Source: an uncultured Gammaproteobacteria bacterium | GTDB lineage: Bacteria; Pseudomonadota; Gammaproteobacteria; Arenicellales; Poriferihabitantaceae | Direction: 5' to 3' | DNA: 64,000 bases | NCBI GenBank assembly: GCA_947259885.1 | Contig: CAMYNW010000022.1 | Span: 1,871 to 65,870, forward strand | Shown: positions 1-16,006 of the stretch, piece after piece | Layout: each line of letters starts with the position of its first letter | Numbering within the stretch: position 1 is the stretch's first letter | Made by a program: the position numbers and the translations under genes | Notes under the pieces: model-generated | Seen by the model: only the letters and a program-made list of their open reading frames with translations | Told to the model about the DNA's origin: nothing | Databases searched by the model: none

Positions 1-3000
1 GTCATCACTTTTTCAGGCGGAACGATCAGCGCGGGCGAACTCGTAACACTTAGTTTTAATATCACGCTGGCAGACCCTATCGCTCTGGACCCGAATGAAG
101 TCATCAGCAATACCTCTGATGTGACCGGCAATTCACTGCCACCGAGCGATCCGAATGCAGACGAACAGCGGACAACCACTGATGAGGATGAAGACGAGTT
201 GTACGGACTGCCGGCAATCATCAAGGAGGTCGCAGACAACTATGATGACGTGCCGCCTGGAGATGCGGATTTTGAAGCGACCAGTCACGCAGGTACAGAT
301 GACAGCCAATTCGATACCACGCTGCCGGATCTTACAATAGGAGAGGTGGTCACCTATGAAGTGACGGTCGTTATACCCAACACCTTTGACGATCCGAATC
401 TCACAACCATCGCAACTTCGATTACGGATACCTTGCCGGTCGGGTTGGGCTTGATTGACGCAAGAGTAGTGGCTATCGGCGGTAACCGCAGTGCTGGTGC
501 CACCGAGGGCGGTGAGTTGGTCAACGATACCAATGCAGCGGTTACCGTTGGACCGGCCAGCAGCGGTCTGGCAGTGGGAAATTCCCTGGCCGCTGGCAGC
601 GCTAACATAAGTGGAACAGTAGGCGGCTCTTCAGTGACTTTCGATTTTGGAGGCCTTGCGGTTAATGATCTCGATGGGGCGGTTGGCGACGAGCAGACCA
701 TTGTGGTGCAGATTGATGCTGTAGTTCTCGATGATGCCAGTAATGCGGCAGGTGACGTGAAAGTCAACTCAGCGCAACTCATCTGGGAGGAGACTGCCGG
801 GGACCCGATTGTTATCGAAGATGATGCGGAAATTGAGATCGTAGAGCCGGAACTGGAAATAACCAAATCTTTTATCGATCCCGCTACCGGAGTGGATGTT
901 TACACCGTAGGCGAAGGAGACCAGGTCGTTGCGGTTTTGAATGTCACCAATAACGGTAGTGCAAATGTCTATGACGTTCTGGTTACTGATGAAATCGATC
1001 TGGTGAACTGGATCATTATCAGCGAACAGGTGACGCCACCCGGTTTTATCTATTCGGTTGAAGATGGCGTCAATGCCGTACCTGCTGATACGGTCACTTA
1101 CACCATGAATTCTTCTCTCGACGCCGCTAATCCGGACAATTTTGTTGCGCCTGGCGAGACGGTGACTATCGAGTTCATTCTTCAATACACGGGTGCCGAT
1201 GATGGCGGAGCGCAGATCGACAACACTGCTGAGGCCACTGGAAATTCTCTTCCAGCAAACGAAGTCCTGGTTGTTCCGGGCCTGGATACTGTTCGTGATA
1301 CCGAAGACGAAGGCTCTGATTTCGTTTATGAGGATCCTGGCCTCGAGAAGGTGGTGATCGAGGGACTTAATCCCGATACCGGCTCCGAACAGCACGATCC
1401 TGCTCTGGTCGATCTGAATATAGGCGAACAGGTAACCTATGAGCTCACCATCACATTACCGGAATCCTTGCTCGATGCGAGTGGCGCAATGATCCCGGTC
1501 ACCGTGAACCTGATTGATGATCTACCGGGTGGTTTTACCGTGGTTGGGGCAGAAATTACCGGTATAGGCAGTGCCGTGACCGCCGCTGACCTAGCGCTAG
1601 GGAATACCCTGACCGTGCTGGATCCGGTAACGCTTGGGCTTGGTGTACCTGCGGCAACTGACGATCCTGATATCTCCTCGGCAGATGTCAATTTCCCCGC
1701 GCCAGCAGTTGGCGACGGTTTTGATGATCAGGTGTTATTCAGTTTTGGCGGGGTCACGGTTGATGACGTTGATAATCTCGCGCTGCAAACCATCACAGTG
1801 CGTGTGACTGCTGTAGTGATGGATGTTGAACCCGAAAACATCGACGGCGAAGTTAGAACTAACGATGCGACGCTCGAGTTTTTTGGTACCCCGACCGGTG
1901 ATCCGGCTAATCCTTTCGACGAGATCGTTCCGATTGAGATCACCGATTCTGCAGATGTGGAAATCGTCGAGCCCGAGCTGGAGATTGAGAAGACTTTCTT
2001 GAATGCCGCGGGCACTGCTGAAGTTGAAAGCGTGACCTCTGGAGATACGATTACAGTTCAATTGACAGTGACTAACACGGGTACCGGCCCGGCTTATGAT
2101 CTGGTGATTGAGGATCCTTTGGATCCAACCAAATTCAATATTTCTACAATATCGCCGGTCTCCACTCCAGCAGCGTTTATGTTCAGTCTGTCGGGGAATA
2201 GCGTGATCTACACGCTTGATTCCGGTGCGGGCACCCCAGGGAGCCCAGCGCATGTGGTGACACCAGGAGAGAGCGTTGTTCTGACTTTTACCGTACAGGT
2301 ACTTGAGGGCATTGGACCTGATACTGCCCTCAACACTGCCACTGTCGATGGAGACTCTGCACCTGGCGACAACCCTTTTGAGCGCGACGAGCCCACTAAG
2401 GAAGGTACCGATGAACTCGCTATCCTGGCGGTGCCGTTACCTCCATCAATCTCCCCCCCTTCTCAAGGTCTTACCGGTTTAGAAGATACCGGAGATTCAG
2501 AAACTCTCGCCGATCAGGTACTGAGGACATATCGATACGACATCTTCGATCGGCTCAGGGATGAGTATGATGAACTGTTTGAACAGATCCGGCGTGATCT
2601 CCAAACCGAACTACCTAAGCTCTCAGCGAACTATATGGCCACCGGGATCACCGAGCACGGATCAAACGTTACGCTGATCGTTTACGATGAAACCGGAGCT
2701 ATTGTTGGCTACTCTTCTACCCTTGCCGATACCGCGGGCAACTGGGCAGTGAGCTTTCCTCAGACCGTTCTGGATAAATCACCTCACCATGTCGAAGTGC
2801 AGGTATCAGCGGCCAGCTATAATGAAAGCACCGCCGGTGAATTTAATACCCGTATATATTTCACTCCCGCCACTGATGCCAGAGTGGCGCATTATAAGGG
2901 CCTCCAGGTCGGCGACGTGATTGCAGAGCGCGCGGATTCGTTGCTCGAGAGCATGCATCAGGGTAACCAGACGCCGTTCGGTTCTCCGGGCGCAAACTGG

Positions 3001-3048
3001 AATCATCCCTATGAGTTCCTTGGTACCGCAAGTATTGAAAACCTCTAA
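1..3048 (+). CDS. C-terminal part of a very large repeat-containing surface/secreted protein (DUF11 / 'conserved repeat domain' type); 5' end lies outside the window
   Basis: Frame 1 is open from base 1 (VITFSGGTISAGELVTLSFNITLADP...) into the listed ORF at 121, so the gene is truncated by the window edge. The signature 'E(I/V)VEPELEI(T/E)K(S/T)F ... VTN(N/T)G(S/T)..(V/A)YD(V/L)V(V/I)(T/E)D' occurs at nt ~835-1000 and ~1960-2110. The protein is acidic, rich in Thr/Val/Asp and has no Cys. The last ~190 aa are non-repeat and include an Ig-like 'GSNVTLIVYDETGAIVGYSSTLADTAGNWAVSFP' segment. Stop TAA is at 3046-3048. Confidence 0.85.
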   Translation, partial: VITFSGGTISAGELVTLSFNITLADPIALDPNEVISNTSDVTGNSLPPSDPNADEQRTTTDEDEDELYGLPAIIKEVADNYDDVPPGDADFEATSHAGTDDSQFDTTLPDLTIGEVVTYEVTVVIPNTFDDPNLTTIATSITDTLPVGLGLIDARVVAIGGNRSAGATEGGELVNDTNAAVTVGPASSGLAVGNSLAAGSANISGTVGGSSVTFDFGGLAVNDLDGAVGDEQTIVVQIDAVVLDDASNAAGDVKVNSAQLIWEETAGDPIVIEDDAEIEIVEPELEITKSFIDPATGVDVYTVGEGDQVVAVLNVTNNGSANVYDVLVTDEIDLVNWIIISEQVTPPGFIYSVEDGVNAVPADTVTYTMNSSLDAANPDNFVAPGETVTIEFILQYTGADDGGAQIDNTAEATGNSLPANEVLVVPGLDTVRDTEDEGSDFVYEDPGLEKVVIEGLNPDTGSEQHDPALVDLNIGEQVTYELTITLPESLLDASGAMIPVTVNLIDDLPGGFTVVGAEITGIGSAVTAADLALGNTLTVLDPVTLGLGVPAATDDPDISSADVNFPAPAVGDGFDDQVLFSFGGVTVDDVDNLALQTITVRVTAVVMDVEPENIDGEVRTNDATLEFFGTPTGDPANPFDEIVPIEITDSADVEIVEPELEIEKTFLNAAGTAEVESVTSGDTITVQLTVTNTGTGPAYDLVIEDPLDPTKFNISTISPVSTPAAFMFSLSGNSVIYTLDSGAGTPGSPAHVVTPGESVVLTFTVQVLEGIGPDTALNTATVDGDSAPGDNPFERDEPTKEGTDELAILAVPLPPSISPPSQGLTGLEDTGDSETLADQVLRTYRYDIFDRLRDEYDELFEQIRRDLQTELPKLSANYMATGITEHGSNVTLIVYDETGAIVGYSSTLADTAGNWAVSFPQTVLDKSPHHVEVQVSAASYNESTAGEFNTRIYFTPATDARVAHYKGLQVGDVIAERADSLLESMHQGNQTPFGSPGANWNHPYEFLGTASIENL
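124..2400 (+). repeat. Intragenic super-repeat of ~1.11 kb (~370 aa) within the adhesin-like gene, about two full copies plus a partial third
   Basis: Unit boundaries recur as 'TGNSLPPSDPNADEQRTTTDEDEDELYGLP' (nt ~124), 'TGNSLPANEVLVVPGLDTVRDTEDEGSDFVYEDPGLE' (nt ~1237) and 'DGDSAPGDNPFERDEPTKEGTDELAILAVP' (nt ~2347). 'VEPELEI.K.F' recurs ~1125 nt apart. The copies are diverged at the DNA level, so the repeat is visible in protein rather than nucleotide sequence. Confidence 0.6.
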
Positions 3049-3067: not shown

Positions 3068-5029
3068 ATGCCCATAAACACCACAGCAAACCAAATCAAA
3101 GCCCTGACGCTCTTTCTCTGGGTGGCATTTTGTCTGGCTACTCCCGTTAATTCGAGTGCAGAGGACTGGAAATTTTCTGAGAGTTCCGCTGAGGAATCAG
3201 CAGTTCTCAAACAAAATTTGAAGCGTCAGTTTGCCGATGATGAGGTGACAGATAATATTGAAGAGAGATATCAGTCGGACGACGAACCGGTGAATTGGCG
3301 AAACAAAGACAAGGAGTTTGATCCTGCGATTATTGATTGGGAGCGAGACGAAGATTTACAGCGCCTGTCACCGATTGTTGAGGATGCAGAGAAGAATGTC
3401 GAACTCATCGGTACTGGCGGCAACCCTTACGCGAGTGACATCAGCGATGGGAAAATGCCTGATAAATTAAACATCTGGTGGGATCGTGAAGTACTCTCAC
3501 AGATGGGCAGGAACACCGTGCCGAATCGCGAAACACCGGAGAGCTTGATCCTCAGAGCGATGGAGCATTCGAGTCAGATCAAGGTCTTTTCTGATGTGCC
3601 CATCATACGAGAAACCGCAGAACTTGAGGCGGTTGGAGAATTTGATCCGATAGCCTATTCCGAGTATCGAATGACCGATCTCGATGAGCCGGTGGGGAGT
3701 ACACTCAAGACCGGTGGTCCAGAGCGTTTTTTCGAGGACGAATGGTTATTCAGGGCAGGTATCAGAAAAAAGTTCGTAACCGGAACCGAGATCGACCTAT
3801 CACAAAGATGGGGAGTTTTAGATAACAATTCAGAATTTCTTGTGCCAAAGGATCAGGGCAATGCAAAAATCGCAATCACCCTCACCCAGCCACTGATCAA
3901 TGGTGCGGGAATCCGCTATAACCGGAGTTTGATCGATGTTGCCCAACTTGATGGCAGCATCGCCCGTGATGAATTCAAGCGCCAAGTTGAATCTCATCTG
4001 CTTGAACTCGTGCGATCCTACTGGGGACTCTACCTGGAGCGCGCTACACTTACACAGCGCAGGGCATTGGTAAGGCGCACTCAGAAGATTGCAGACACCC
4101 TCGAGGCCCGATCAGGTTATGACGTGTCAGAAGTCCAGGCTCAGAGAGTCCGGTCTGAGGTGCTGGTGCGAAAGTCCGATGTAGTGCGAGCTGAATCTGC
4201 GGTTCGAAATGCGGAAGCCCGAATTGTGTCCCTGATCAATGATCCCGAATTCAGTATGCGAGACACGTTTGAGTTGTTACCAGAGACCACACCCATCACA
4301 GCAGCGAGCACGGTAACACATGACATGGCGCTCGCACTTGCGCTCGCAAACCGACCAGAGATCGATCAGGCATTCAAGCAGGCACGTGCCAGTGCGATTC
4401 GAGTTAAGATGACCAGAAACGAACTGCGCCCGGTTCTTAATTTCGTGCTCGGGTATGCCCGTGATGGATTGGCGGGTGAAGGTGATTATAACCAGGCCTT
4501 TGAGAATGAGTTTGACCTTGGTGATGGAAGCTGGATCGCAGGTTTGGTATTTGAAATGCCGCTCGGGAACCGTGTGGCCAAGTCCCGACTCGAAAGACGT
4601 CAAGCAGAAGCTAGACAGTTGGCCTATCAGCTCAAGACAACCGTGGATACTGTGCTGCTGGAGGTTCAGGTTTCGGTTCGAGAAATCCATACGTCATACC
4701 GTGAAATGCATGCTAAGTACACCGCAATGCAGGCGCTGGTAGCTGAAGTCGATAGTCTGGAACAACGTCAGGGAGTTGAACTTGTGGACGGCAACAGCGG
4801 CGGTAGATATCTTGAGAGACTACTGGACGCACAGGATCGGCTGACAGAATCTGAACACGAGTTCCTGAAGAGCATGACGACTTATAATGTAGCGTTAGTA
4901 AATCTGGATCGTGCTACCGGCATGTTTATGCAGACAAATGACATTCAGCCCCGATATTTTGATGATATAGATCCTTATATTGATGGACTTCCCACATACG
5001 AACTGGAAAAAGTCAGTAGTTCACAATAA
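3068..5029 (+). CDS. TolC-family outer-membrane efflux/secretion protein
   Basis: The listed ORF starts at 2921 inside the upstream gene. The in-frame ATG at 3068 gives a signal peptide, 'MPINTTANQIKALTLFLWVAFCLATPVNSSAED'. The body shows the two-fold OEP repeat pattern: 'LLELVRSYWGLYLERATL', 'ALALALANRPEIDQAFKQARAS' and 'LLEVQVSVREIHTSYREM'. Confidence 0.85.
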   Translation: MPINTTANQIKALTLFLWVAFCLATPVNSSAEDWKFSESSAEESAVLKQNLKRQFADDEVTDNIEERYQSDDEPVNWRNKDKEFDPAIIDWERDEDLQRLSPIVEDAEKNVELIGTGGNPYASDISDGKMPDKLNIWWDREVLSQMGRNTVPNRETPESLILRAMEHSSQIKVFSDVPIIRETAELEAVGEFDPIAYSEYRMTDLDEPVGSTLKTGGPERFFEDEWLFRAGIRKKFVTGTEIDLSQRWGVLDNNSEFLVPKDQGNAKIAITLTQPLINGAGIRYNRSLIDVAQLDGSIARDEFKRQVESHLLELVRSYWGLYLERATLTQRRALVRRTQKIADTLEARSGYDVSEVQAQRVRSEVLVRKSDVVRAESAVRNAEARIVSLINDPEFSMRDTFELLPETTPITAASTVTHDMALALALANRPEIDQAFKQARASAIRVKMTRNELRPVLNFVLGYARDGLAGEGDYNQAFENEFDLGDGSWIAGLVFEMPLGNRVAKSRLERRQAEARQLAYQLKTTVDTVLLEVQVSVREIHTSYREMHAKYTAMQALVAEVDSLEQRQGVELVDGNSGGRYLERLLDAQDRLTESEHEFLKSMTTYNVALVNLDRATGMFMQTNDIQPRYFDDIDPYIDGLPTYELEKVSSSQ

Positions 5030-5062: not shown

Positions 5063-5857
5063 ATGACATTTCGGGCAAGTATATACTCCCTGATCGCTGT
5101 TTTGAGTCTGGCCTCTCAGCCAGTCTTGTCGTTCGAAGGTTTTCTCGAGCCGTTGCAGACCGTCGATATAACTGCTGCTGAAACAGGTGTTTTGAGCACA
5201 CTCAGTGTTTCAGAAGGTGCTGAAGTAAAAGCTGGCGATGTCCTCGCAGTTCTTGACTCGCGTCTGATTGAAGCTTCTCTGAAAGTAGCCAAGGCCAAGA
5301 AAAACTCAACTGCAACGATCCTGGGAGCCAGTGCGGAGTGGGAGGTTTCAAAAAACAAACTGGCCCAGTTTGAAAAACTGTATGCGGCAGGTAATGCGAG
5401 GAAAGATGAACTGGTGCGGGCAGATCTGGATGAAAAGATCGTGGCGGCGAAACTGGCGCGTGCCAGGGAACAGAAAGAAATCCTGGAGTTGGAGTACCAA
5501 CGAATTCAAATGCAGATCGAGCAACGAATTATCCGCAGCCCGATTAACGGTGTCGCGGTAACCGTGAATAGGGAAGCTGGAGAACTGGTGAGTGCTTCGC
5601 ATGGACCTTTCATCCGTATTGTCGATATATCTCAGCTGAAGTTCATCACTAATATACCCCAGCAGGACGCACGGAAAATTAACCGGGGCGATGAAGTCAG
5701 TATAGGGCTTGATGCGGAAGGGGAAAAGCTGACAGGTAAAGTTGAATATGTCTCTCAGATCATCGATCCAACCAGTAATACCGTTAAAGTCTCGGTGAAT
5801 CTTGAGAATCCTGGCGGCGTCAGAAGTGGAAACGCAGGGCGTCTTTTGCTGCAGTAA
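5063..5857 (+). CDS. HlyD-family periplasmic adaptor (membrane-fusion protein), short form with signal peptide
   Basis: N-terminal signal 'MTFRASIYSLIAVLSLASQPVLS'. Lipoyl-like hairpin 'GVLSTLSVSEGAEVKAGDVLAVLD', a coiled-coil stretch, then 'IRSPINGVAVTVNREAGELV' and a beta-barrel tail 'GKVEYVSQIIDPTSNTVKVSVNLEN'. Confidence 0.85.
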   Translation: MTFRASIYSLIAVLSLASQPVLSFEGFLEPLQTVDITAAETGVLSTLSVSEGAEVKAGDVLAVLDSRLIEASLKVAKAKKNSTATILGASAEWEVSKNKLAQFEKLYAAGNARKDELVRADLDEKIVAAKLARAREQKEILELEYQRIQMQIEQRIIRSPINGVAVTVNREAGELVSASHGPFIRIVDISQLKFITNIPQQDARKINRGDEVSIGLDAEGEKLTGKVEYVSQIIDPTSNTVKVSVNLENPGGVRSGNAGRLLLQ

Positions 5858-5935: not shown

Positions 5936-7903
5936 ATGCAGGGAGTTTCCCGATCTCGCAAAGCCCATACCGCGTGTTATCGCATGCGAAAAATGAATAC
6001 ATCTTTAAAACCTTCCATTAAATCTCAGAAGGCCGATGCGGAGTCATCGGTTGCGGAGCAATTGGCGCGAACTGATGTACCAAAATTTGACAGTCAAACT
6101 ACCTATGCCCAGCTGTTAAGGTTGACCGAGACGCTGAGCACGCGCCAGGAATTTCTCCTTTCTTTACTACAGTATGCAGTCAGCGTGTCCCACGCCCATG
6201 GCGGGGTTTATTACTTGCTTGATGATTCCGGGGTGCTGAAGCTAGGTCCGAGACTTTTATCTCGGGAGCTTATGTATCAGGTTCCTGGGGCGATGGAGAA
6301 TATCAATGCTCTTGCAAAGGACTGTCTCAATAAAGGTTACAGTATCAGTGGCGCAATTGACCCTGCAGAATCGATTCAAGCTGTAATGTCTCCTGTCAGC
6401 TGCGGTGATCAAGGTGCTGAAGTTATTTGTCTAGTGGTCAATGTAGAGGCGTCACAGAAAAGCTACTGGAGTCTTTTTGTTCAGCTGCTTGCAGGTTACG
6501 TTAACTTGTGGGAGCAATCGCTATCGAATCGTCGGCTGCTCGAAGAGACCACATTTACCGCTGGTCTGGTCGAAATTATCAGTGAACTTAACCATACAGA
6601 AGATACGGAGAAGGCACACATTAATTTCACTTCGCAGCTAAAGCATCTCACGCAAGCTGACAGGGTGGCACTTGGCTTATCCCGACGCAGCCGGTCAGGG
6701 TTAAGTTTGGTGCAGCTTTCTGATGGGGATGATGTAAACAAACGTGGCGAATTTACTCGTTTGTTGGAGCTGTGCTTCGAAGAATCCATGGATTTTGGAG
6801 AACCCGTTGTTTGGCCAGAGGATAATGATAGAAACGATCGTGGTTTGTTTGGCGGCCACAAGCGTTTCAGTGAATTTGTCGAAGCCAAAAGCATGTTGTC
6901 GGTACCTCTGGTCGGGACAGACGATGAGCGAACCGGCGTGGTGACGCTTTGGTGGAGCGATAAAGTTCCGAATAATCAGATAAGACATTCTATGGGCGCT
7001 GCAGCAGAGCCGCTGGCAAATGCGATCGAGGCAAGAGAACGCTTCAAAGGATCTGCCTATCACAAGCTTTTGTTCAAGCGACACCGCAATCGGACAAAAG
7101 TTTTGATGTTTCTGCTGATGATTGCAGTAACCGGCACCATGTTTTTTCCGATCACTCACCGGATTACCGGCGATGTTTTGATTCAGCCAGTTGGTCAGCG
7201 AATAGTTTCAACTTCGTTCGATGCGATCCTCGATGAAGTTTTCGTGGATACGGGTGATCTGGTAAAGAAAGGAGATAAGCTCGCTGAATTTGATGGCCGA
7301 GAGTTGAAGTGGCAGCTGAACAGTCTCGAAGCCGAAGCTGCAAGTGCAAAGAAGACCAAAGATCTGAAGCTCGCGGAAAGGGATGCTCAGGGTGCGCAAG
7401 TCGCGCGACTCGACATGGAACGCATTGACCTGCAGGGAGAGTTGCTTCGTCACTACATTGCAAACCTTGAAGTCCGATCCCCGATAAGCGGCATTATTCT
7501 AAGTGGAGACTTAGAGCAGAGACGCGGCAGTCTGATCTCTAAAGGACAATCAATATTCGAGATCGCCCCGCTCGACAATGTCGAAGCAGAAATAAGACTA
7601 TCAGCGCTCGATTTCAAACATATTGGACCCGATATGCCCGCTGAAATTTCTCTTGAAGCTCTTCCAGGTGAAAACTGGCCGGTGACCCTGGAGCGGGTCC
7701 AGCCACGGGCCATGGTGCTCGATTCAAAATCGGTGTTTATTGGCCGTGAGAGTATTAACAACGCTGATAAAAGAATACGACCGGGGATGCGTGGTGCGGT
7801 CTCGATCGCAGGAGAGAAAAGGCGCATTGGTTGGGTTTTGTTTCATCGCGCGTATGACAAGGTTGCGTTATGGTTGCGCGCTAAGTTTGGCTTGAAGGCG
7901 TGA
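5936..7903 (+). CDS. HlyD-family adaptor with a long cytoplasmic N-terminal region (two GAF-like segments) and one TM helix
   Basis: The C-terminal half is HlyD-like: 'GDVLIQPVGQRIVSTSFDAILDEVFVDTGDLVKKGDKLAEFD', a coiled coil, 'VRSPISGIILSGDLEQRRGSLISKGQSIFEIAP' and 'RPGMRGAVSI'. A TM helix 'VLMFLLMIAVTGTMFFPI' precedes it. The N-terminal ~380 aa contains two alpha/beta segments ending in 'EVICLVVNVE' and 'TGVVTLWW', which resemble GAF folds; this is inference. The start is uncertain, with in-frame ATGs at 5936, 5984 and 5993 and no good SD for any of them. Confidence 0.8.
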   Translation: MQGVSRSRKAHTACYRMRKMNTSLKPSIKSQKADAESSVAEQLARTDVPKFDSQTTYAQLLRLTETLSTRQEFLLSLLQYAVSVSHAHGGVYYLLDDSGVLKLGPRLLSRELMYQVPGAMENINALAKDCLNKGYSISGAIDPAESIQAVMSPVSCGDQGAEVICLVVNVEASQKSYWSLFVQLLAGYVNLWEQSLSNRRLLEETTFTAGLVEIISELNHTEDTEKAHINFTSQLKHLTQADRVALGLSRRSRSGLSLVQLSDGDDVNKRGEFTRLLELCFEESMDFGEPVVWPEDNDRNDRGLFGGHKRFSEFVEAKSMLSVPLVGTDDERTGVVTLWWSDKVPNNQIRHSMGAAAEPLANAIEARERFKGSAYHKLLFKRHRNRTKVLMFLLMIAVTGTMFFPITHRITGDVLIQPVGQRIVSTSFDAILDEVFVDTGDLVKKGDKLAEFDGRELKWQLNSLEAEAASAKKTKDLKLAERDAQGAQVARLDMERIDLQGELLRHYIANLEVRSPISGIILSGDLEQRRGSLISKGQSIFEIAPLDNVEAEIRLSALDFKHIGPDMPAEISLEALPGENWPVTLERVQPRAMVLDSKSVFIGRESINNADKRIRPGMRGAVSIAGEKRRIGWVLFHRAYDKVALWLRAKFGLKA

Positions 7904-10047
7904 TAAACACAGATAAAAGCGTCAGAGAACTGAACCGTCTGAAGCTCAAGATCAGATCGGATGTTTCCATTTCAGCCAGGACAGATGGCGCTGAGCGCAC
8001 ATTTCTAATTGAAGATTCAATCGGCGGTAAATTTTATCGCGTGGGTGAATCGGAGTATCGATTTATAAGTCTGCTCGATGGCAGCGCGACCATAGGTGAA
8101 ATACTTATCCAACTGGCGCGAGATCTGGGAGAGGCCGCCTTGACCGAGCAAGACGCGGCGGTGATCGTGAACTGGCTATCTGAGTCGCGTTTATTGCAGC
8201 CAGAGTCTGGGATCGAAGCAGATCAGATAATCGACGCACGAAGCAGCAGGGACAGTAATCGCTTTCTGCGATGGTTGAACCCGTTATTCATAAAGATCCC
8301 ATTGTGTAATCCGGATCGCTTTCTAGAGTGGTGTAAACCTCTTTCCCGGATTCTTTACTCTCCTACTGCATTTATTATCTGGTGTGTAATCGTTGTCAGT
8401 GGTCTTTATCAGGTGGTTGTCAACGCCAGCCGGTTTTCTACAGAAGCTTCAGGCGTACTTGCGGTCTCAAACTGGGCATTGCTGCTGATAGTCTGGATAG
8501 TGCTCAAAGTGATCCATGAGCTCTCACACGGATTGGTATGCAAACATTTTGGCGGGAGTGTTAACGAAGCCGGAGTGATAATGATACTGCTGGTGCCAAT
8601 AGGGTATGTGAACGCCACAAGTTCCTGGGGATTCTCTTCTCGCTGGCGACGAATCTATACGGCCGTTGCGGGAATCTATGTGGAATTTTTTATCGCCGCT
8701 GTTGCAGCGTGGGTTTGGGTCGGATCAGAACCTGGTTTGCTGCGTGCAGTCTGCTACAACACGATTGTTATCGCTAGTATTAATACGCTGTTGTTCAACG
8801 CAAACCCCCTGATGAAGTTTGACGGCTACTATGTTTTTTCCGATCTGGTCAAAATCCCTAATCTGTATCTTGAGGGCGTATCCTATGTGAAGTATCTGGC
8901 GCGCAGATATTTGCTCGGTTTGCCAATACGTTTTACAGGTCGAAGTGCCCGAGAAGATATTGTTATCCGCGTCTACGGTGTTTTGTCATTGATATGGAGG
9001 ATACTCGTGATTGCCACACTGCTGATTGCAGCAAGTGCGTTGTTTCACGGGCTTGGCCTGGTCATGGCCTTTCTGGCCCTCTGTGTAATAGTTGTGTTGC
9101 CGGGGCTGAAATTCTTGCGCTATCTGGTTTCTGGAAATCAGTACGAAAAACCACGTGCCTTTCGATTCGTCACCATGATCTCGGTGGTGGCTTTAATTAT
9201 ATATTTTGGTCTGTTCAGTTTTAAGTGGAACCAGTCAATTGCCGCGCATGGACTTGTTGAGTTTTCCTCGATCAAAGAGTACCGCACGATCTATCCTGGA
9301 GAGATACGGGCGATATTGGTCGAAGATGGCGAGGAAGTATCTGCAGGCCAAAGACTAGTTGACCTGTCGAATCCGGAGTTGGTAGTTCAGGTCGCCACTA
9401 AGCGAAACGAGCTGGAGAAAATCAGGCTCGAGCGAAAGGAGCTTTTACGTCAGAATAAGCTCGCCGCCTATCAGGCCACCAAGGAGCGTGAAACTGCCGC
9501 AAGGCGCCAGCTACTGGAGTTTGAGCAAATGCTGGCTGGACTGGAATTGACGGCGGAGTCAGAAGGGGTCGTGATTTTAAACAACCCAGATTTGTTGGTT
9601 GGCAGATACGTGAGAAATTCAGACGTACTGCTCTCGATCGCGCATTCACTGGAAAAAGAACTGCGCATTGCGCTACCGCAACGTGATGTGAGTCGTCTGC
9701 AGTTGCAGGAGGATGACAGATTTAGGTTTCTGCTACTCGGCGGTGATGCTATAGAAGCAGAAATCCAAACGATATCGCCGAGCGCCACCGATCTATTAGT
9801 CAATCCTGTCCTCACCGCGGTCGGGGGTGGACCTCTTGCAGTGCTCTCGGAAGATTCGAATCGGTTCAGGATGACAGAACCACACTTCTGGATTATCGCT
9901 AGCATTATCAACAGCACCCGAGATGTCCTCGGAGCCGGGGAGCGGGGTTTGGCGGTGTTACAGGGTGTACCTACATCTATTGGCTATCTCTGGATACGAT
10001 CTGTGAAAGACTGGATCGAGGGAATTACCAATCAGATCAAAAGATAG
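7900..10047 (+). CDS. Triple fusion: PqqD-like (RRE-like) N-terminal domain, site-2-protease family M50 membrane metalloprotease, and HlyD-like C-terminal domain
   Basis: The GTG start at 7900 overlaps the upstream stop (GTGA). The N-terminus 'YRFISLLDGSATIGEILIQLARDLGEAALTEQDAAVIVNWLSESRLL' resembles PqqD-type peptide-binding domains. The zinc motif HELSH lies at nt 8515-8529. The second S2P motif N-x2-P-x4-DG ('NANPLMKFDG') lies at nt 8797-8826. Multiple TM helices follow. The C-terminal part has coiled-coil and barrel elements: 'GEEVSAGQRLVDLSNPELVVQVATKRNELEKIRLERKELLRQNKL' and 'ESEGVVILNNPDLLVGRYV'. Confidence 0.85.
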   Translation: MINTDKSVRELNRLKLKIRSDVSISARTDGAERTFLIEDSIGGKFYRVGESEYRFISLLDGSATIGEILIQLARDLGEAALTEQDAAVIVNWLSESRLLQPESGIEADQIIDARSSRDSNRFLRWLNPLFIKIPLCNPDRFLEWCKPLSRILYSPTAFIIWCVIVVSGLYQVVVNASRFSTEASGVLAVSNWALLLIVWIVLKVIHELSHGLVCKHFGGSVNEAGVIMILLVPIGYVNATSSWGFSSRWRRIYTAVAGIYVEFFIAAVAAWVWVGSEPGLLRAVCYNTIVIASINTLLFNANPLMKFDGYYVFSDLVKIPNLYLEGVSYVKYLARRYLLGLPIRFTGRSAREDIVIRVYGVLSLIWRILVIATLLIAASALFHGLGLVMAFLALCVIVVLPGLKFLRYLVSGNQYEKPRAFRFVTMISVVALIIYFGLFSFKWNQSIAAHGLVEFSSIKEYRTIYPGEIRAILVEDGEEVSAGQRLVDLSNPELVVQVATKRNELEKIRLERKELLRQNKLAAYQATKERETAARRQLLEFEQMLAGLELTAESEGVVILNNPDLLVGRYVRNSDVLLSIAHSLEKELRIALPQRDVSRLQLQEDDRFRFLLLGGDAIEAEIQTISPSATDLLVNPVLTAVGGGPLAVLSEDSNRFRMTEPHFWIIASIINSTRDVLGAGERGLAVLQGVPTSIGYLWIRSVKDWIEGITNQIKR

Positions 10048-10063: not shown

Positions 10064-11968
10064 GTGAGAGTATGGCACCAATTATGGAGAAGGGACCCGG
10101 CCGGTTTCACTGCGTCTGACTTTTCGCTTGTGGAGAGGGTCAATAGTCTTTATAGCGAGCTTAACAGCCAGTCTGATTCAGAGCTTTGTGAACGGTTTCA
10201 AGCGCTCCGAAAACGCGCTGCAGATCTTACGCAGAGCCAACTGACCTTATCTGACGATCAGTTCATTGCCAATGGGTTTTCCTGTATTAAGGAAGCGGGT
10301 CGGCGTGCACTGAATATGGAACTGTATGATGTTCAGATTCTGGCTGGTATAGCGATGGTGCGTGGAAACGTGGCTGAGATGGCGACGGGAGAAGGAAAGA
10401 CACTGGTCGCGGCGTTGCCGGCCTGCGTATTCGCATTGTGGGGGAAAGGGGTGCATATTATGACCACTAATGCCTATCTGGCCCAACGTGATTGTGAGCT
10501 TATGGGGCCTCTATATCGAATGCTGGGGCTGAATGTGGGTCTTATATTCAGCCAAATGCCTCGATCTGAAAAGCACGATGCGTACCTGGCAGATATAACG
10601 TATGGCGTCGGCAATGAATTTGGTTTTGATTATTTGCGCGATCAGTCGATGCTGCACCAGATGCCCAAGGCGGCTATTGGAAGCGCGTATCGTGATCGTT
10701 TGCGCGGCCAAACTGACGAGAAGATAAAACCTCTGCAGCGTGGACACGCTTTCGCAGTGATTGATGAGGCAGATAGCGTCATGATCGATGATGCCAATTC
10801 AACATTGATTCTGAGTGGGTCATCGGGATTGCCGCACCCACAACCAGAACCTTATAAGGTGGCGAGAGCGATATTCGAAGAACTGGTTGAGAACAAAGAC
10901 TACGTGGTCGCCGATACTGAGAAGAAAGTTTCGCTTTCCAGTGCTGGTATGGAAAAAATAGTCCAGCGCCTCGATCGCGATACACGCCTGTCGTTGACAA
11001 GGCCATGGGAGACATACGTCGTTAATGCAATCTATACGGATAGATTTTACAGTCTAGACATCGACTACATCATTAAAGATGAAGCGATTCAGATAATCGA
11101 TGAGTCGACCGGACGCCGTTTGGAGGACCGCAGCTGGAGTAACGGATTGCACCAGGCGGTCGAGGCGAAAGAAGGGGTGCCGATAACGGAAGAGAGTGCA
11201 TCTTATCTGAAAATATCTCGACAGCGTTTTTTTCAATCTTACCAAGTACCCTGCAGCATGACCGGAACTGCACTTGATTGCGAACAGGAGTTCAAGCGGT
11301 TTTATCATATGAGTGTCAAGAAAGTTCCGTTACACAAGAAGAGCCGCAGGAAACACCTGCCAATTAAGTTCTTCGCCAGCCGAGAGGAAAAGCGGAAAGG
11401 AGTTTCGGCGCTGGTTCGTAAAGTCCACTTAGCTGGAATCCCGATTTTGATCGGCACACGGAATGTAAAGGATAGCGAGAGTCTCTCGGAATTGATCCAC
11501 ACAGGTGGAATCAAATGTAATGTTTTGAATGCCAGGCATGATCAATTTGAAGCAGAAATAATTAAAAAGGCTGGTAAGAAATTCGCGGTTACAGTGGCGA
11601 CCAATATGGCCGGGCGCGGAACGGATATTCCAATAGATAAAGAAGTTGAGGATCTCGGAGGTTTATTTGTGATTGTTTTCGAGCCACACCTGTCACGGCG
11701 TCTGGATCGTCAGTTTATTGGGAGATGTGCGCGACAGGGTGAACCGGGAACAGCTGTAATGTTATCGTGTCAGGACGATGAGATTTTTCAGATCGCCAGA
11801 TTCACCGGGTGGTCTTCCCTGAAAAGAAACAAACAATGGGACCCTGAGAAGCTTGCGATACAAATCCGGGGGCTGCAATCAAAACTTGATGCCGAGGCTT
11901 ATTTGAACAGACAGCAATTGATGCGGCGAGATAAGTGGCAAGCGGAACTGCTGAACAAACTTACCTAG
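10064..11968 (+). CDS. SecA-like ATPase (accessory SecA paralog), C-terminally truncated relative to canonical SecA
   Basis: The start lies 16 nt after the upstream stop. SecA motor motifs are present: Walker A 'MATGEGKTLVAALPA', DEAD-like 'VIDEADSVMIDDANSTLILSG', 'ATNMAGRGTDI' and 'RRLDRQFIGRCARQGEPG'. The N-terminus 'ERVNSLYSELNSQSDSELCERF' parallels that of SecA. The protein is only 634 aa and ends shortly after the start of the scaffold helix ('LQSKLDAEAYLNRQQLMRRDKWQAELL'). Confidence 0.85.
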   Translation: MRVWHQLWRRDPAGFTASDFSLVERVNSLYSELNSQSDSELCERFQALRKRAADLTQSQLTLSDDQFIANGFSCIKEAGRRALNMELYDVQILAGIAMVRGNVAEMATGEGKTLVAALPACVFALWGKGVHIMTTNAYLAQRDCELMGPLYRMLGLNVGLIFSQMPRSEKHDAYLADITYGVGNEFGFDYLRDQSMLHQMPKAAIGSAYRDRLRGQTDEKIKPLQRGHAFAVIDEADSVMIDDANSTLILSGSSGLPHPQPEPYKVARAIFEELVENKDYVVADTEKKVSLSSAGMEKIVQRLDRDTRLSLTRPWETYVVNAIYTDRFYSLDIDYIIKDEAIQIIDESTGRRLEDRSWSNGLHQAVEAKEGVPITEESASYLKISRQRFFQSYQVPCSMTGTALDCEQEFKRFYHMSVKKVPLHKKSRRKHLPIKFFASREEKRKGVSALVRKVHLAGIPILIGTRNVKDSESLSELIHTGGIKCNVLNARHDQFEAEIIKKAGKKFAVTVATNMAGRGTDIPIDKEVEDLGGLFVIVFEPHLSRRLDRQFIGRCARQGEPGTAVMLSCQDDEIFQIARFTGWSSLKRNKQWDPEKLAIQIRGLQSKLDAEAYLNRQQLMRRDKWQAELLNKLT

Positions 11969-12124
11969 CCATGAGATAGGGTACGAAGTAAGGTATTAGT
12001 TTACAAGTCAGCATCTTATCTTTCGACCTACAATTTGGAACTTGATTAAGCCTAACGTCGGAAAAGCTGCCGTTCACCAGAATCCCCCGAAACTCTCAAG
12101 ATGCTCCCGAGCCGACATTGATAA

Positions 12125-13099
12125 ATGGAGAACCATACGGAGATAGCCTATGCTTATAAATGCGCTGCATTCCCTTATTCAGAATATAATCAGGAAATGG
12201 TTTCGGGCAATCTTAAAGTAACTCGCCTCGCCGGTGCTCTGGGTGCGGAAGTAAAAGGCATGCCACTAGCAGATGTTGATGCTGCGCAAGTTGATATTGT
12301 TAAATCTCTGTTGCTGGAGCACCAGGTTTTGTTCTTTCCAGATCAATTTCTAGGCGTTGACGCACATGTCAATCTAGGGCGCTATTTCGGCATATTGGAA
12401 TCGCACCCAAATCTAAATAATCCTTACACTGAACATCCGGAAATTTTCGAGCTTGCAGCCAGTCACGGCGGTGTTGCAGATGAGTGGCACAGCGACATTT
12501 CATTTCAAGCCAACCCCTCCATCATGTCTATATTGAACATGATTAAATGCCCTGATGTTGGTGGTGATACGCTTTGGTCGAGCACCTACGCCGCATACGA
12601 AGGTTTGTCTGCTCCGATGAAAGATCTCCTGGACGGGCTGACCGCTCTCCATGACGCCGCCCCGCATTGTAAACCAGATATTACCGCTATCCATCCGGTA
12701 GTCCGTATTCATCCAGAAACGAACCGAAAGGCCATATTCGTTAATGAACACTTTACCCGGCGGATCGTCGAACTTAGCCATCAAGAAAGCAGACTACTCC
12801 TTGAGTATTTAATTGGCTGGATCGCCAGCCCTCGATTTACCGTCCGCTATCATTGGCAGCAGGGTGCCATAGCCATCTGGGACAACCGCTGTACTCAGCA
12901 CTATGTTTTGAGCGATTTTGATGAGGAAAGGATTATTCAAAGGGTCACAGTGATGGGGGATAACCCAAGACCAGCGGGGCCGCCTCGTTGGGAACCGTTT
13001 ACACGAACAGAAGTAACGGGTGCAACAAGTCGGTTTGACCAGCAGTTGAATAAACATTTAGGAAGGGAAGTTAACACCCTAGCAAGTAATAAAAAGTAA
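12125..13099 (+). CDS. TauD/TfdA-family Fe(II)/2-oxoglutarate-dependent dioxygenase
   Basis: 'ADEWHSDISFQANPSIMSILNMIKCPDVGGDTLWSS' carries the HxD facial-triad region. 'AIWDNRCTQHYVLSDF' is the typical C-terminal TauD motif. Confidence 0.85.
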   Translation: MENHTEIAYAYKCAAFPYSEYNQEMVSGNLKVTRLAGALGAEVKGMPLADVDAAQVDIVKSLLLEHQVLFFPDQFLGVDAHVNLGRYFGILESHPNLNNPYTEHPEIFELAASHGGVADEWHSDISFQANPSIMSILNMIKCPDVGGDTLWSSTYAAYEGLSAPMKDLLDGLTALHDAAPHCKPDITAIHPVVRIHPETNRKAIFVNEHFTRRIVELSHQESRLLLEYLIGWIASPRFTVRYHWQQGAIAIWDNRCTQHYVLSDFDEERIIQRVTVMGDNPRPAGPPRWEPFTRTEVTGATSRFDQQLNKHLGREVNTLASNKK

Positions 13100-13895
13100 A
13101 CACGGTTGATTGGTACTGAAAACTGTATCCAAAACTGAGTGGTTTTTATCGGAAGCGAATGGTTACGTCAAAACTGATACTTGAGACCGCTGCCCAATAG
13201 AAAGTGCGAAAGAATATTGACACTACCTACGTCAACGTTGTTCTCCATTTGCGCAATTTACGTATCTGCTCACTCTAGGAAAATAAAATAATTCTAGTTA
13301 CCCGACATTCGTGAAGATAATCGAAATGACTAAGTTTGCTCCGAAGCGGACTTTCATTGGAAGATGAAAACGAGTTGTTGCACTGCAACCGCAAAGTCTC
13401 AGAACGGTCCTTTTCCGCCATTAACTGAATTTCATTGAAATGCGGTTCTATGGTTCAGCCCTTAAAAAATGGACCACTATGAAAGTCCACTAGCTCTAAG
13501 TTTGACTTGGAGACTGTGAAAAGCTGACATTCCAATCATAGCCATTTGTTAAGGAGCCTCTGATTAAAACTGGACGAATCATGTTGAGGTTTAAAATGAT
13601 CGAGTTCGAGGCGGGAAACGCACGTAATAGCAGGGCTATTGCGAAGTTTTCGAAATAGGTCATTTTGGGCTCAAATTGATCGTTCATGTTTTGATCAGAG
13701 GTTCCTTAAGTATTTCGTTCGTAAAAAGTGTAAATTACCACAGAAATCTCAGCTCCTAAAGTCGCGACTCTTTCGATAATTCTACGCTCTATTTTCAAGT
13801 CAAGGTTAGCTCCCGAATCTCCGCTCTTGAACCCAACAGCAAAAGTCCTAAAATATCACCAACCCCATTCAAACCATAACATGCAGGGAAATTCA

Positions 13896-15767
13896 ATGAC
13901 GAATAAGTCGAAAACCGTAGTGTTTGACAGTAACCCCGGCCGCAACGCCCAAACTTATGGTGTGGCGCGTGAGCTCGGCACTGATATGGATTTGATCCAC
14001 GAACCATCTGTGGGTGTCATGGGTACTAAGGGCGATAGTCAATGTTATTTGGGTGTGCAGCGAAAGGTCGAAGCCATTCACGAAAATCTGCGCCAACGTC
14101 TTGGGCGCGGTGACGGTCAGATGCCAATGCGTTTGGTACAACCTGAATATACGGTTGCGACCTCGGATGGTATGCGTAACGGTACACGGGAAATGCGCTA
14201 TTCACTCATTGGTCGTGAGGTCACCCATGATACGGTTTGCGAACACCTGAGCGCGAGTGGCCTGGAAGGAACAATCGCGGTGGTTGCCTGTGACAAACCA
14301 CCGGTTGGCACTTTGGCCGGCATCCTTGAGCATGATCGACCTGCGATCATCATGTCTGATGGCCCGATCCGGCCCGGTAAAGATTCAGTAACAGCAGAGT
14401 CCATCGATATCATTAGTGGCTTCCAGGTGGCGGGTAGTCATGATACCGAGCTTAAAGACCGTATCGCTCGCGAAGCATGCCCGGGATATGGAAGTTGCGG
14501 CGGCATCTTTACCTATAACACGATGCAGACTTTTATTGCGGTTGTCGGAATGCAGCCGCTGCACATGGTTGCGCCGCCGTCAGACGACCCGCGCCGGATT
14601 AACGAATTCCCGGAACAGCTTGTTACCTACTTGAAAGGCATGATTGAACGGGGTCAAACGCCGCGCGACATCGTCACCCGTGATGCCATCCGCAACGGCG
14701 TAATTGTTGCCATGGCGATCGGCGGATCAACAAATGTCCTGTTACATGCGCCCGAAATTGCGAGAGCGGCGGGATTTCGCAGTTTTTCTGAAAACATTAT
14801 GTCGCCAGAAGAATTTAATCACTTGTCACAGTATGTGGTCCCTGTTTTAACCGACGCTCGCCCATACGGTAAATACTCCATGGTCGACATCGATGAAAAA
14901 GGCGGTGTGCAAGTAATCATCAAAGAGTTAATGGATGCAGGGCTGTTAAATGGCGATACGGAAACCTGCACCGGCGAAACACTGGCCGAGCAAATCGCGC
15001 GGCTCAATACTGCGGGACCAGATGGCACCGTGGTGTATACCGTGGAGAAACCATTCAAACCAACTGGAGGCCTGCGGGTACTAGGCGGCAATCTTTCGCC
15101 TGAATTCAGCGCAGTACTTAAACTGGCCGGCGTTGAAGGCGGGCTGGAAAACAATCGCTTTGTTGGCAAAGCTCGCATCTTTAACGGGGAACAGGGGCTG
15201 CTCGATGCACTGGAACTAACACCGGAAAGTTTCAGCAATCACGATATGGTAATTGTGCGCTATGAAGGGCCTTGTGGTGCACCAGGGATGCCGGAAATGC
15301 TTGACTCAACTTCCCGTATCACAACGCTTTGCCGTGAGAAAAACATTGTGGTAGGCATGATGACCGATGCCCGTTTTTCCGGTGGCTCTGTCGGCCTAGT
15401 AATCGGCCACGTTGGGCCAGAAGCCGCGTTGGGTGGACCAATTGCCCTTGTCGAAGATGGTGATGAGATTATCGTGGATCTCGACGCCAATCAGATCAAC
15501 TGCTCGTCATTGGATGACACGGCAATACTCAATACGCGTAAAGCGGCATGGGAAAAAATGGTTGCTGATAATGGTGGAATGCATCCCGCCTGTGGCGAAG
15601 TCGATACCCGTTTATTAAACCGGATGCGAATGTCTGCAGTTTCCGCAGTCTACGGAGCCGGAATGCATCCGGATCGAGTCCTATGGGTGCCACAACCGCG
15701 TGAAGCAGGAAAAAGTGGTTTCGTACCACACAACAAATATCGTGAGGGATCTCAGAAAGTGTTCTAA
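13896..15767 (+). CDS. IlvD/Edd-family dehydratase (dihydroxy-acid / sugar-acid dehydratase type)
   Basis: Family motifs: 'VACDKPPVGTLAG', 'CPGYGSCGGIFTYNTMQTFIAVVGMQ' (Fe-S cluster Cys region), 'MAIGGSTNVLLHAPEIA', 'DARFSGGSVGLVIGHVGPEAALGGPIALVEDGDEI'. I chose the ATG at 13896 because it follows 'cagggaa'. In-frame ATGs also occur at 13827 and 13881. Confidence 0.85.
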   Translation: MTNKSKTVVFDSNPGRNAQTYGVARELGTDMDLIHEPSVGVMGTKGDSQCYLGVQRKVEAIHENLRQRLGRGDGQMPMRLVQPEYTVATSDGMRNGTREMRYSLIGREVTHDTVCEHLSASGLEGTIAVVACDKPPVGTLAGILEHDRPAIIMSDGPIRPGKDSVTAESIDIISGFQVAGSHDTELKDRIAREACPGYGSCGGIFTYNTMQTFIAVVGMQPLHMVAPPSDDPRRINEFPEQLVTYLKGMIERGQTPRDIVTRDAIRNGVIVAMAIGGSTNVLLHAPEIARAAGFRSFSENIMSPEEFNHLSQYVVPVLTDARPYGKYSMVDIDEKGGVQVIIKELMDAGLLNGDTETCTGETLAEQIARLNTAGPDGTVVYTVEKPFKPTGGLRVLGGNLSPEFSAVLKLAGVEGGLENNRFVGKARIFNGEQGLLDALELTPESFSNHDMVIVRYEGPCGAPGMPEMLDSTSRITTLCREKNIVVGMMTDARFSGGSVGLVIGHVGPEAALGGPIALVEDGDEIIVDLDANQINCSSLDDTAILNTRKAAWEKMVADNGGMHPACGEVDTRLLNRMRMSAVSAVYGAGMHPDRVLWVPQPREAGKSGFVPHNKYREGSQKVF

Positions 15768-15874
15768 GGCAGCATGACCAGGTTGCTAGAACAAGTGGTT
15801 GTCCGAGTTTTGCTGTGGATTCAGATGGTAGATGCAACATACTAATCTTTTGTTAAAGAGAGGGAGTGTTGCAG

Positions 15875-16006
15875 ATGAAATACAGACGACGGATTCATTA
15901 CACGGATACTCAGAAAACCCAGTTGTCAGATCAGGTTGAAACTGGATATCCATACCGGTTGATCAGATCCCAACTAATACATATGAGTAGTGTTACATAT
16001 GAGTAG
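15875..16006 (+). pseudogene. 43-codon ORF, possibly the decayed N-terminal stub of an IS30-like transposase or HTH protein
   Basis: ATG at 15875 follows 'agagagggag'. The peptide 'MKYRRRIHYTDTQKTQLSDQVETGY...' resembles the '...RRR.HY(S/T)..QK...WDRW..G.S' N-termini I associate with IS30-family transposases. The HTH continuation is lost, and the ORF ends inside a duplicated 12-mer ACATATGAGTAG (15979-15990 and 15995-16006). Recognition is weak and by eye only. Confidence 0.25.

Follow-up and report, generated by a model that had tools for sequence, protein, structure and literature searches.

A short SecA-like ATPase in a gammaproteobacterial HlyD/M50/TolC operon belongs to a conserved truncated family with giant repeat proteins as probable cargo

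Secondary SecA_DEAD domain proteins, whose SecA_SW domain is absent or present as a fragment, were described in Planctomycetes, Verrucomicrobia, Proteobacteria (with Gammaproteobacteria listed), Nitrospirae and Chlorobi (Kamneva, Poudel & Ward, 2015, PLoS One 10:e0129066; PMC4452313). In that study they form a clade separate from canonical SecA and neighbouring the actinobacterial SecA2, co-occur with canonical secA in the same genomes, and are encoded in a conserved locus with HlyD, GAF-HlyD, Peptidase_M50 and sometimes outer-membrane OEP proteins. The authors proposed that the SecA_DEAD protein is an ATPase replacing the ATP-binding cassette (ABC) transporter of a system like type I secretion, and that the M50 membrane protein might form a pore. 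Their work was computational, with a re-analysis of expression data for Methylobacterium extorquens only. Here we analyse a gene of this kind at positions 10064-11968 of a 64,000-nucleotide stretch of DNA (contig CAMYNW010000022.1, hereafter the window) from an uncultured gammaproteobacterium of the Arenicellales. Its product resembles the proteins described in 2015 in SecA_DEAD and preprotein cross-linking domain (PPXD) content, in its membership of a separate clade, in its HlyD, GAF-HlyD, Peptidase_M50 and OEP neighbours and in the ABC-replacing role that can be proposed for it, and it differs from them in nothing essential. The window gene is thus a further sequence of an already described kind, with Arenicella and Acidiferrobacterales metagenome-assembled genomes (MAGs) as its best named sources of relatives.

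A preliminary description of the window, made by eye, had reported that all ATPase motor motifs and a region at the position of the PPXD are present, and that the protein nevertheless ends at 634 aa, shortly past the start of the helical scaffold, without wing domain, two-helix finger or C-terminal tail. Both observations were borne out. MATGEGKT occupies residues 106-113, VIDEADSVMIDDANSTLILSG residues 232-252, TNMAGRGTDI residues 513-522 and RRLDRQFIGRCARQGEPG residues 545-562, and the core residues of these four motifs are invariant across 88 family members. Pfam places SecA_DEAD at residues 22-411 (9.8e-89), SecA_PP_bind at residues 263-367 (2.3e-24) and P-loop_SecA at residues 429-528 plus a second stretch (9.9e-40), and the same scan found neither SecA_SW (PF07516) nor SEC-C in the protein. 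We aligned the window protein with its 120 best database matches; in this 121-sequence alignment, residues 594-634 line up with residues 570-610 of P0085, a full-length Anoxybacillus SecA with its SecA_SW domain at residues 571-772. The short SecA therefore retains about 40 of about 200 wing/scaffold residues, and the loss covers everything after window residue 634, or P0085 residue 610. An AlphaFold model built on the family alignment (pLDDT 91.3, pTM 0.88) ends in one long helix, residues 594-633. The protein is made up of nucleotide-binding domain 1 (NBD1), the PPXD, NBD2 and a scaffold helix cut to its first ~40 residues, and lacks the wing domain, the two-helix finger and the C-terminal tail. 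The only uncertainty in the gene model is the start codon, which could be the GTG at 10064 or a GTG 22 codons downstream at 10130; a 98%-identical metagenomic copy is annotated 22 aa shorter.

The closest relatives in the PDB are SecA proteins (E values from 1e-118 to 1e-92), and the alignment with Thermotoga maritima SecA reaches query residue 622, which is T. maritima residue 644 of 822. With the canonical SecA of Escherichia coli, Bacillus subtilis and T. maritima (PDB 3DIN, 6ITC), the window protein shares the NBD1-PPXD-NBD2 motor, all ATPase motifs and the start of the scaffold helix at 34-42% identity, but it lacks about 130-260 C-terminal residues, comprising the rest of the scaffold, the wing, the two-helix finger, the C-terminal linker and the zinc finger, and it scores below the cutoffs of the canonical models (533 against 800 bits for TIGR00963 and 517 against 814 for NF009538). 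It can be seen as a natural counterpart of the engineered E. coli SecA-N68 (PDB 5K9T), with half a scaffold helix in addition. The model superposes on SecA with TMq values of up to 0.84, and the best superpositions are on substrate-engaged, SecY-bound SecA (0.80-0.84 for 6ITC, 3DL8, 5EUL and 3DIN), with 5K9T also among the matches. It was predicted in the closed-clamp conformation of SecY-bound SecA (TMq 0.84 to 6ITC versus ~0.7 to free SecA), perhaps only through predictor bias.

SecA2 of Actinobacteria and Firmicutes (PDB 4UAQ, 6SXH) is likewise a second, specialised SecA paralogue, and the two clades are neighbours in the published phylogeny (PMC4452313). However, SecA2 proteins in our data set (P0086; PDB chains of 705-786 residues) are far longer and keep SecA_SW, which the short SecA does not, and the window protein falls far below the cutoffs of the SecA2 models (425/725 bits for TIGR04221, 422/930 for TIGR03714, 529/1085 for TIGR04397 and 367/1100 for NF012136). 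SecA2 works with SecYEG or SecY2, whereas the short SecA adjoins HlyD, M50 and TolC genes in bacteria with an outer membrane. SecA_DEAD/PPXD modules without wing or scaffold have also been noted inside giant proteins of Omnitrophota and Actinobacteria, with a proposed role in export (West-Roberts et al., bioRxiv 10.1101/2023.11.21.568195). Those modules are embedded in the giant protein and have neighbours like those of type II secretion systems or type IV pili, while the motor of the window is a separate 634-aa protein in an HlyD/M50/TolC operon.

The truncation is a conserved trait of a SecA family. Among the 120 best matches, 91 proteins measure 535-698 aa and are without PF07516, which is present in the other 29, of 754-937 aa. 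Every one of the 91 short homologues ends 0-11 residues from the alignment column of the last residue of the window protein, and the long SecAs extend 127-264 residues past that column. In a neighbour-joining tree of the 121 sequences over 594 well-aligned columns, a distance method applied to a set with only 29 long sequences, the split between short proteins and full-length SecA/SecA2 has a bootstrap value of 100/100. In this tree the short proteins form a clade of their own. Their named sources include Arenicella, other Gammaproteobacteria, Pirellulaceae, Planctomycetaceae, Chthoniobacter, Rariglobus and a Kiritimatiellota isolate. Residue changes specific to the family were considered as a marker of a new partner surface; just four positions (48, 94, 355 and 549) consistently differ between short and long SecAs, too few for interpretation.

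A pseudogene, frameshift or assembly error would also yield a short protein, and the length itself is all that speaks for this explanation. The identical truncation point in 91 homologues from several phyla, the short type in 26 independently retrieved genomic loci (see below) and the confident model over the full length of the protein all stand against it. A remainder of secA in another frame after 11968, which would have marked a frameshift or split gene, had not been seen by eye, and this was upheld by tblastn with the C-terminal 165-264 residues of nine full-length SecAs. The search covered all frames of the 64-kb window, found no C-domain remnant (best E 0.1) and ruled out a frameshifted or split secA. 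We regard the artefact as refuted, with next to no probability left to it. The short gene is the only SecA-like gene within the window.

The short SecA gene is the last of six closely spaced or overlapping genes on one strand (Table 1), starting 16 nt downstream of the M50-HlyD stop codon; no intrinsic-terminator-like site was found after it. Upstream lie genes for a giant repeat protein, a TolC-like outer-membrane protein (OMP), a short periplasmic adaptor, a GAF-HlyD protein and an M50-HlyD fusion, so that three HlyD-domain proteins and one OEP protein are encoded together. The OMP starts just past the stop codon of the giant gene with the signal-like sequence MPINTTANQIKALTLFLWVAFCLATPVNSSA; it matches Pfam OEP in two stretches (7e-24) and, below the cutoff, the NCBIfam model type_I_sec_TolC (3e-12). 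In the short adaptor we found Pfam HlyD_D23 and HlyD_3 and an NCBIfam RND_mfp match above the cutoff (112.6 versus 94.9 bits), and in the GAF-HlyD protein HlyD_D23, HlyD_3 and GAF_2, with a single hydrophobic segment. Pfam and NCBIfam detected no ABC domain in the six-gene operon and its immediate flanks and no RND or MFS pump in the operon, and none of the annotated open reading frames (ORFs) of the window is SecY-like, a secY2 or an accessory Sec gene.

The module of OMP, short HlyD, GAF-HlyD, M50-HlyD and short SecA recurs in Gammaproteobacteria, Planctomycetota, Verrucomicrobiota, Kiritimatiellota and Desulfobacterales. In loci seeded from the short SecA (L001-L007), tblastn confirmed orthologues of all six window proteins in the same neighbourhood in other phyla, and a short HlyD gene stands beside the short SecA gene in every one of these loci. 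The gene order of the window is repeated in a gammaproteobacterial MAG (L002/L003) and in L007. A complete Kiritimatiellota genome (L001) carries the module without an adjacent OMP gene, a Planctomycetaceae MAG (L004) has the order OMP, short SecA, HlyD, HlyD, and Chthoniobacter (L005) carries the module as well. The OMP orthologues of L002, L004, L005 and L007 are 39-55% identical to that of the window.

Three of the loci show further genes. In the Kiritimatiellota genome, a 95-aa DUF3467 gene with no counterpart in the window lies between an 8,020-aa giant gene and GAF-HlyD (L001, 5638-5925). A planctomycete-type locus (L006, 8422-12061) encodes an 88-aa N-terminal SecA_DEAD fragment, then Uma2-family and PIN-domain proteins, then a 686-aa short SecA, an arrangement with the look of a toxin-antitoxin or mobile insertion by which the 5´ end was duplicated or split. 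In another locus (L090), the OMP gene and the short secA are separated by a PhdYeFM/YoeB toxin-antitoxin pair (16891-17387), within the operon of the system.

An independent test was seeded from M50-HlyD and covered the best 80 loci (L008-L087) of at least 575 relatives in species-representative genomes. GAF-HlyD lies directly beside M50-HlyD in 76 of these 80 loci, the short HlyD in 56 and the OMP in 36. A SecA gene is found beside M50-HlyD in 26 of the 80, and in 14 of the 34 loci where the flanks extend at least 8 kb on both sides. All 26 of these SecA genes are of the short type: the stop codon follows 0-56 residues beyond the end of the tblastn match (0-36 in the 25 that match to query residue 625 or further), and the stop-to-stop length is at most 711 aa. 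Given that every M50-linked SecA is short and that adjacency holds for 26 of 80 loci, the short SecA is specifically tied to the HlyD/M50 module, though not always adjacent to it. Some genomes hold two separate M50-HlyD systems, namely Stieleria marina K23_9 (L054 and L063), where both have their own short SecA, and a Mariniblastus MAG (L045 and L066); since single genomes hold two systems, cells may have several cargo-specific copies, as these cases suggest.

The lineage of the short SecA has shed the parts through which SecA is coupled to the SecY channel and to SecB. The preliminary description had suggested that the paralogue probably does not work on SecYEG as canonical SecA does and may instead serve only the neighbouring M50/HlyD/TolC components, the same interpretation that was published in 2015 (PMC4452313). 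Comparative support for independence from SecYEG, which we infer, now comes from the recurrence of the module across phyla and from the short type of all 26 M50-linked SecAs. In the model that we consider most likely, with moderate confidence, the short SecA would be the cytoplasmic ATPase of an envelope-spanning exporter resembling a type I secretion system (T1SS), in the place of the ABC transporter. Its PPXD/NBD2 clamp would grip an unfolded polypeptide and push it stepwise through an inner-membrane passage built from the transmembrane helices of M50-HlyD and GAF-HlyD, from where the chain would move on through the adaptor tunnel and the TolC-like channel, bypassing SecYEG. The cargo would be the adjacent giant acidic, nearly Cys-free repeat protein. 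A domain at the N-terminus of M50-HlyD that resembles a recognition element (RRE) of ribosomally synthesised peptides with post-translational modifications (RiPPs) may recognise a leader-like motif, LE(E/D)R(I/V)LFDA, which the protease would cut, and the GAF domain may gate, and so regulate, export.

Such a system would share with T1SSs and peptidase-containing ABC transporters (PCATs), such as HlyBD-TolC and LapBCE, the periplasmic adaptors and the TolC-family channel. It would have in common with T1SSs an acidic, Cys-poor, signal-peptide-less and often giant adhesin cargo encoded beside the machinery, and with PCATs a protease domain built into an inner-membrane component. In contrast to T1SSs, it has no ABC transporter; a SecA-type DEAD ATPase is the candidate motor, and three proteins rather than one carry adaptor domains. 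The protease also differs, being a C39 cysteine protease in PCATs and an M50 intramembrane metalloprotease here.

The motor could instead act as a SecA2-like protein that still docks on the housekeeping SecYEG, with the HlyD and TolC components capturing the giant protein from the periplasm in a two-step, MacAB-like manner. The window protein is a close SecA homologue with PPXD and clamp intact, its model superposes best on SecY-engaged SecA, and its clade lies next to the actinobacterial SecA2 (PMC4452313). Gram-positive SecA2 systems, reviewed in the same paper, provide the precedent of a second SecA that can share SecYEG. However, the two-helix finger, which enters the SecY channel, and the wing domain are absent from all 91 short members, the cargo has no hydrophobic Sec-type signal peptide, the window encodes no secY2 or accessory Sec protein, and every SecA2 model of NCBIfam scores far under its cutoff. 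We therefore consider docking on SecYEG unlikely, while giving it some weight, and prefer a motor that has parted from SecYEG.

The protein encoded upstream of the OMP is probably the cargo of the system. The window encodes its C-terminal 1,015 residues, and the product is recorded at 3,463 aa (P0241), with 100% identity over the last 200 aa; the record itself was probably cut at a contig end, since close relatives are 3,936-4,178 aa long. Pfam finds DUF11, DUF7507 and DUF7619 in it. Its last ~175 residues (window positions of about 2520-3045) make up a conserved module that follows the pattern YxYDxF ... GxxExGxxVxxxVYDxxGxxxG ... ADxxGNW ... YNxR ... YEF, which no Pfam or NCBIfam model spans. 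Giant genes beside the system in L001, L002, L007, L008, L014, L048, L054, L069 and L081, from five phyla or classes, encode C-termini that align with it. In an exhaustive search of 1.84 billion cluster representatives, it was found in 226 clusters, 106 of them at E of 1e-10 or less; 59 of these 106 proteins are longer than 1,000 aa, 33 are longer than 3,000 aa, and the longest has 6,853 aa.

The giant proteins also share their N-termini. A basic stretch followed by LE[EDPSQG]R[IVLRC][LFMY] within the first 100 residues is present in 44 of the 55 listed module proteins of at least 2,500 aa, and in none of 2,010 further 100-residue windows of the same giant proteins. In full-length relatives of the cargo it reads LE(E/D)R(I/V)LFDA, with LLLEQLEERIFLDANP and LERLEDRILFDAVP as typical sequences, and resembles the "LEPR-XLL" motif. 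The 24-residue NCBIfam model of that name matches one of these N-termini at 20.4 bits against a cutoff of 17 and another just below the cutoff, and gives the gammaproteobacterial variants no score; nothing on the function of the motif was found in the searchable literature. No hydrophobic Sec-type signal peptide was seen among the giant module proteins of at least 2,500 aa that were examined. Eight giant proteins (P0241, P0242, P0245, P0250, P0263, P0285, P0312 and P0340) and the window portion (1-3048) are extremely acidic, with a pI of ~4, 13-20% D+E, 2-4% K+R and 0-3 Cys in 3,400-6,900 residues; the window portion itself has a pI of ~4 and 0 Cys. RTX repeats were looked for and rejected as a feature of the cargo, with none in the window portion, one nonapeptide match in P0242 and 0 in the other seven proteins examined. 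Full-length giant proteins often have DUF4347 near the N-terminus, along with DUF11/CLIPPER, SdrD_B and SpaA-type repeats.

The association between cargo and machinery holds from both directions. Giant genes of the cargo type adjoin the system in about one third of the sampled loci: a long ORF beginning with the N-terminal motif is found in 21 of the 80 M50-HlyD-seeded loci, and others hold the C-terminal module. Starting from the cargo, with two giant proteins of more than 5,000 residues left out, all four loci looked up hold genes of the system beside the giant gene, namely OMP and HlyD (L088), M50-HlyD (L089), OMP, short SecA and HlyD (L090) and the full set (L091). This cargo link, with both termini conserved and adjacency seen from either side, is new relative to the 2015 description and the searchable papers; PMC4452313 discusses neither a cargo nor where exactly the truncation falls, whether the M50 protein is catalytically competent or its RRE-like N-domain.

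The position of the C-terminal module allows another order of events. In 104 of the 106 best clusters the match ends within 35 residues of the C-terminus, where T1SS signals lie, and the cargo is acidic and Cys-poor like T1SS substrates. Regulated adhesin release by LapA, LapG and LapD offers the analogy. In a LapA-like scheme, export would run C-terminus first with the C-terminal module as the secretion signal, the N-terminal motif would serve as a retention or cleavage site for GAF-controlled release by M50, and the short SecA would be an unfoldase or feeder; sensor (GAF) and protease are indeed both fused to adaptors. T1SS cargo, however, often has RTX repeats together with its C-terminal signal, whereas the giant proteins have no RTX repeats and carry an N-terminal motif in addition to the C-terminal module, and the system has no ABC transporter. 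To our knowledge, SecA translocates chains from N to C in all characterised cases, opposite to the direction that this scheme needs. The M50 active site is predicted to lie in the inner membrane, whereas a retention module would belong in the periplasm or at the TolC exit. We hold this scheme to be rather unlikely.

The M50-HlyD protein joins a cytoplasmic N-domain (residues ~20-95), a membrane domain of the site-2-protease type (~150-440) and a periplasmic MacA/MexA-like adaptor (445-715), with six hydrophobic segments. Its HExxH motif (206-210) and NANPLMKFDG (300-309) include H206, E207, H210, N300, N302 and D308, all invariant in 93 homologues. Invariance of these HExxH and NxNPLMxFDG residues argues for a predicted active site-2-type protease. 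In the AlphaFold model (pLDDT 87.5) the N-domain forms three strands followed by three helices, and the adaptor has an alpha-hairpin. Foldseek superposes the adaptor half on MacA, MexA and AcrA; the top 50 matches of the whole model are adaptor proteins only, with no fold match for the protease or the N-domain. The NCBIfam model daptide_HExxH matches residues 30-400 (1.6e-53) at 182 bits, below its cutoff of 300, and the YydH/LiaK models match at 1.2e-7. In the N-domain (window 7960-8185), this topology and a conserved LLDGxxT ... W/FL pattern call to mind RiPP recognition elements of the PqqD-like type. Searches with the isolated N-domain, in Pfam at E up to 10 with four orthologues and in all PDB sequences with a 24-sequence profile, returned only chance-level matches.

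MpaP of the daptide pathway, a site-2 protease that carries an RRE fused to its N-terminus, removes a leader peptide (Ren et al.), and the M50 protease EpeP is thought to cleave as well as export its peptide. The N-terminal 400 residues of M50-HlyD match the daptide model, including the region that is the RRE in MpaP, and HExxH and NxxPxxxxDG are intact. Unlike MpaP and EpeP/YydH, M50-HlyD is fused to HlyD and occurs with giant proteins and a SecA-like ATPase rather than with small precursor peptides. These relatives raise the alternative of an ATP-fuelled machine for intramembrane proteolysis and peptide export, in which the short SecA would feed the M50 protease as the AAA module of FtsH does, and HlyD and TolC components would expel the peptides as in RiPP maturation. 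RiPP leader peptidases are indeed the curated proteins closest to the M50 half, and one of them, EpeP, may combine cleavage with export; many M50-HlyD loci have neither a SecA nor a giant gene nearby. The operon, however, holds no small precursor-peptide gene and no RiPP-modifying enzyme, and the tight, specific association with giant proteins that share both termini is difficult to reconcile with a peptide product. We judge a proteolysis machine decidedly improbable and retain the export of the intact giant protein, with cleavage of its leader, as the preferred reading.

Several points weigh against the export model. The short SecA is absent from the flanks in more than half of the M50-HlyD loci, and may thus not be obligatory for the system or may be encoded elsewhere. 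The AlphaFold2 model resembles SecY-bound SecA, so that interaction with SecY would be compatible with the predicted structure. The record of the window's own cargo, probably truncated at its 5´ end, does not have the N-terminal motif. The RRE-like nature of the N-domain is a lead that rests on the extent of the daptide match and on predicted topology, unconfirmed by sequence searches, and a protein-conducting channel formed by M50-HlyD is a proposal. The operon of M. extorquens is mostly not or only weakly expressed under laboratory conditions (PMC4452313), and the searchable literature, including that after 2015, yielded no experimental study of any family member.

A more specific version of the model concerns the giant "LEPR-XLL"-type surface proteins as a class. 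These may have a distinct pathway of their own, with recognition and cleavage of the leader by the RRE-like domain and protease of M50-HlyD, threading by SecA with the N-terminus first, and bypass of SecYEG. We put this forward tentatively, as quite possible but short of probable.

Table 1. Genes and other features of the window, in order of position
Feature	Position	Strand	Remarks
Giant DUF11/CLIPPER-repeat protein gene, 3´ end (last 1,015 codons)	1..3048	+	Frame 1 open from base 1; runs off the 5´ end of the window
TolC-like outer-membrane factor	3068..5029	+	653 aa from ATG 3068 (mechanical ORF from 2921); N-terminal signal peptide
Short periplasmic adaptor, HlyD/RND_mfp type	5063..5857	+	264 aa; signal-like N-terminus
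GAF-HlyD protein	5936..7903	+	655 aa; cytoplasmic N-terminal ~385 aa with GAF, one transmembrane helix (389-407), periplasmic adaptor domain
M50-HlyD fusion	7900..10047	+	715 aa; Pfam Peptidase_M50 and HlyD; start overlaps upstream stop codon by 4 nt
Short SecA-like ATPase gene	10064..11968	+	GTG start; 634 aa; no transmembrane segment
Intergenic spacer closing the operon	11969..12124		156 bp
TauD-family dioxygenase, unrelated next gene	12125-13099		Pfam
Non-ribosomal peptide synthetase 1	within 52014-63905	-	1,920 aa; two condensation matches, one adenylation match, two PP-binding (carrier) matches, thioesterase
Non-ribosomal peptide synthetase 2	within 52014-63905	-	1,438-aa C-A-T protein; QueC-like insert in adenylation region
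Non-ribosomal peptide synthetase 3	within 52014-63905	-	491-aa adenylation enzyme running towards the window end

Downstream of the operon, the window continues with an unrelated catabolic cluster (12125-23450). Pfam identified a TauD-family dioxygenase, a dihydroxy-acid/6-phosphogluconate dehydratase homologue and an FAD/old-yellow-enzyme fusion there, and the translations, read by eye, look like a 257-aa short-chain dehydrogenase, a MarR-type regulator, an enoyl-CoA hydratase, an acyl-CoA dehydrogenase and an AMP-forming ligase. On the minus strand, 52014-63905 holds three genes for non-ribosomal peptide synthetases.

The cargo with its recognisable termini, together with the RRE-protease lead, turns an eleven-year-old prediction into a concrete, testable model, and carriers in culture include Methylobacterium extorquens AM1 (short secA META1p2400), Stieleria marina, Lignipirellula cremea and Thioflexithrix. 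For the SecA mechanism, a motor that naturally lacks the two-helix finger also offers a ready test of what the finger does. If the model is true, diderm bacteria would have a secretion route driven neither by an ABC transporter nor by a secretin-type ATPase but by a derivative of SecA that works apart from SecYEG. The "LEPR-XLL" N-terminal motif, annotated by NCBI on many giant proteins and so far unexplained, would gain a function, and the route would explain how adhesins of several thousand residues without signal peptides are placed on the surface of Planctomycetota, Verrucomicrobiota and several proteobacterial lineages.

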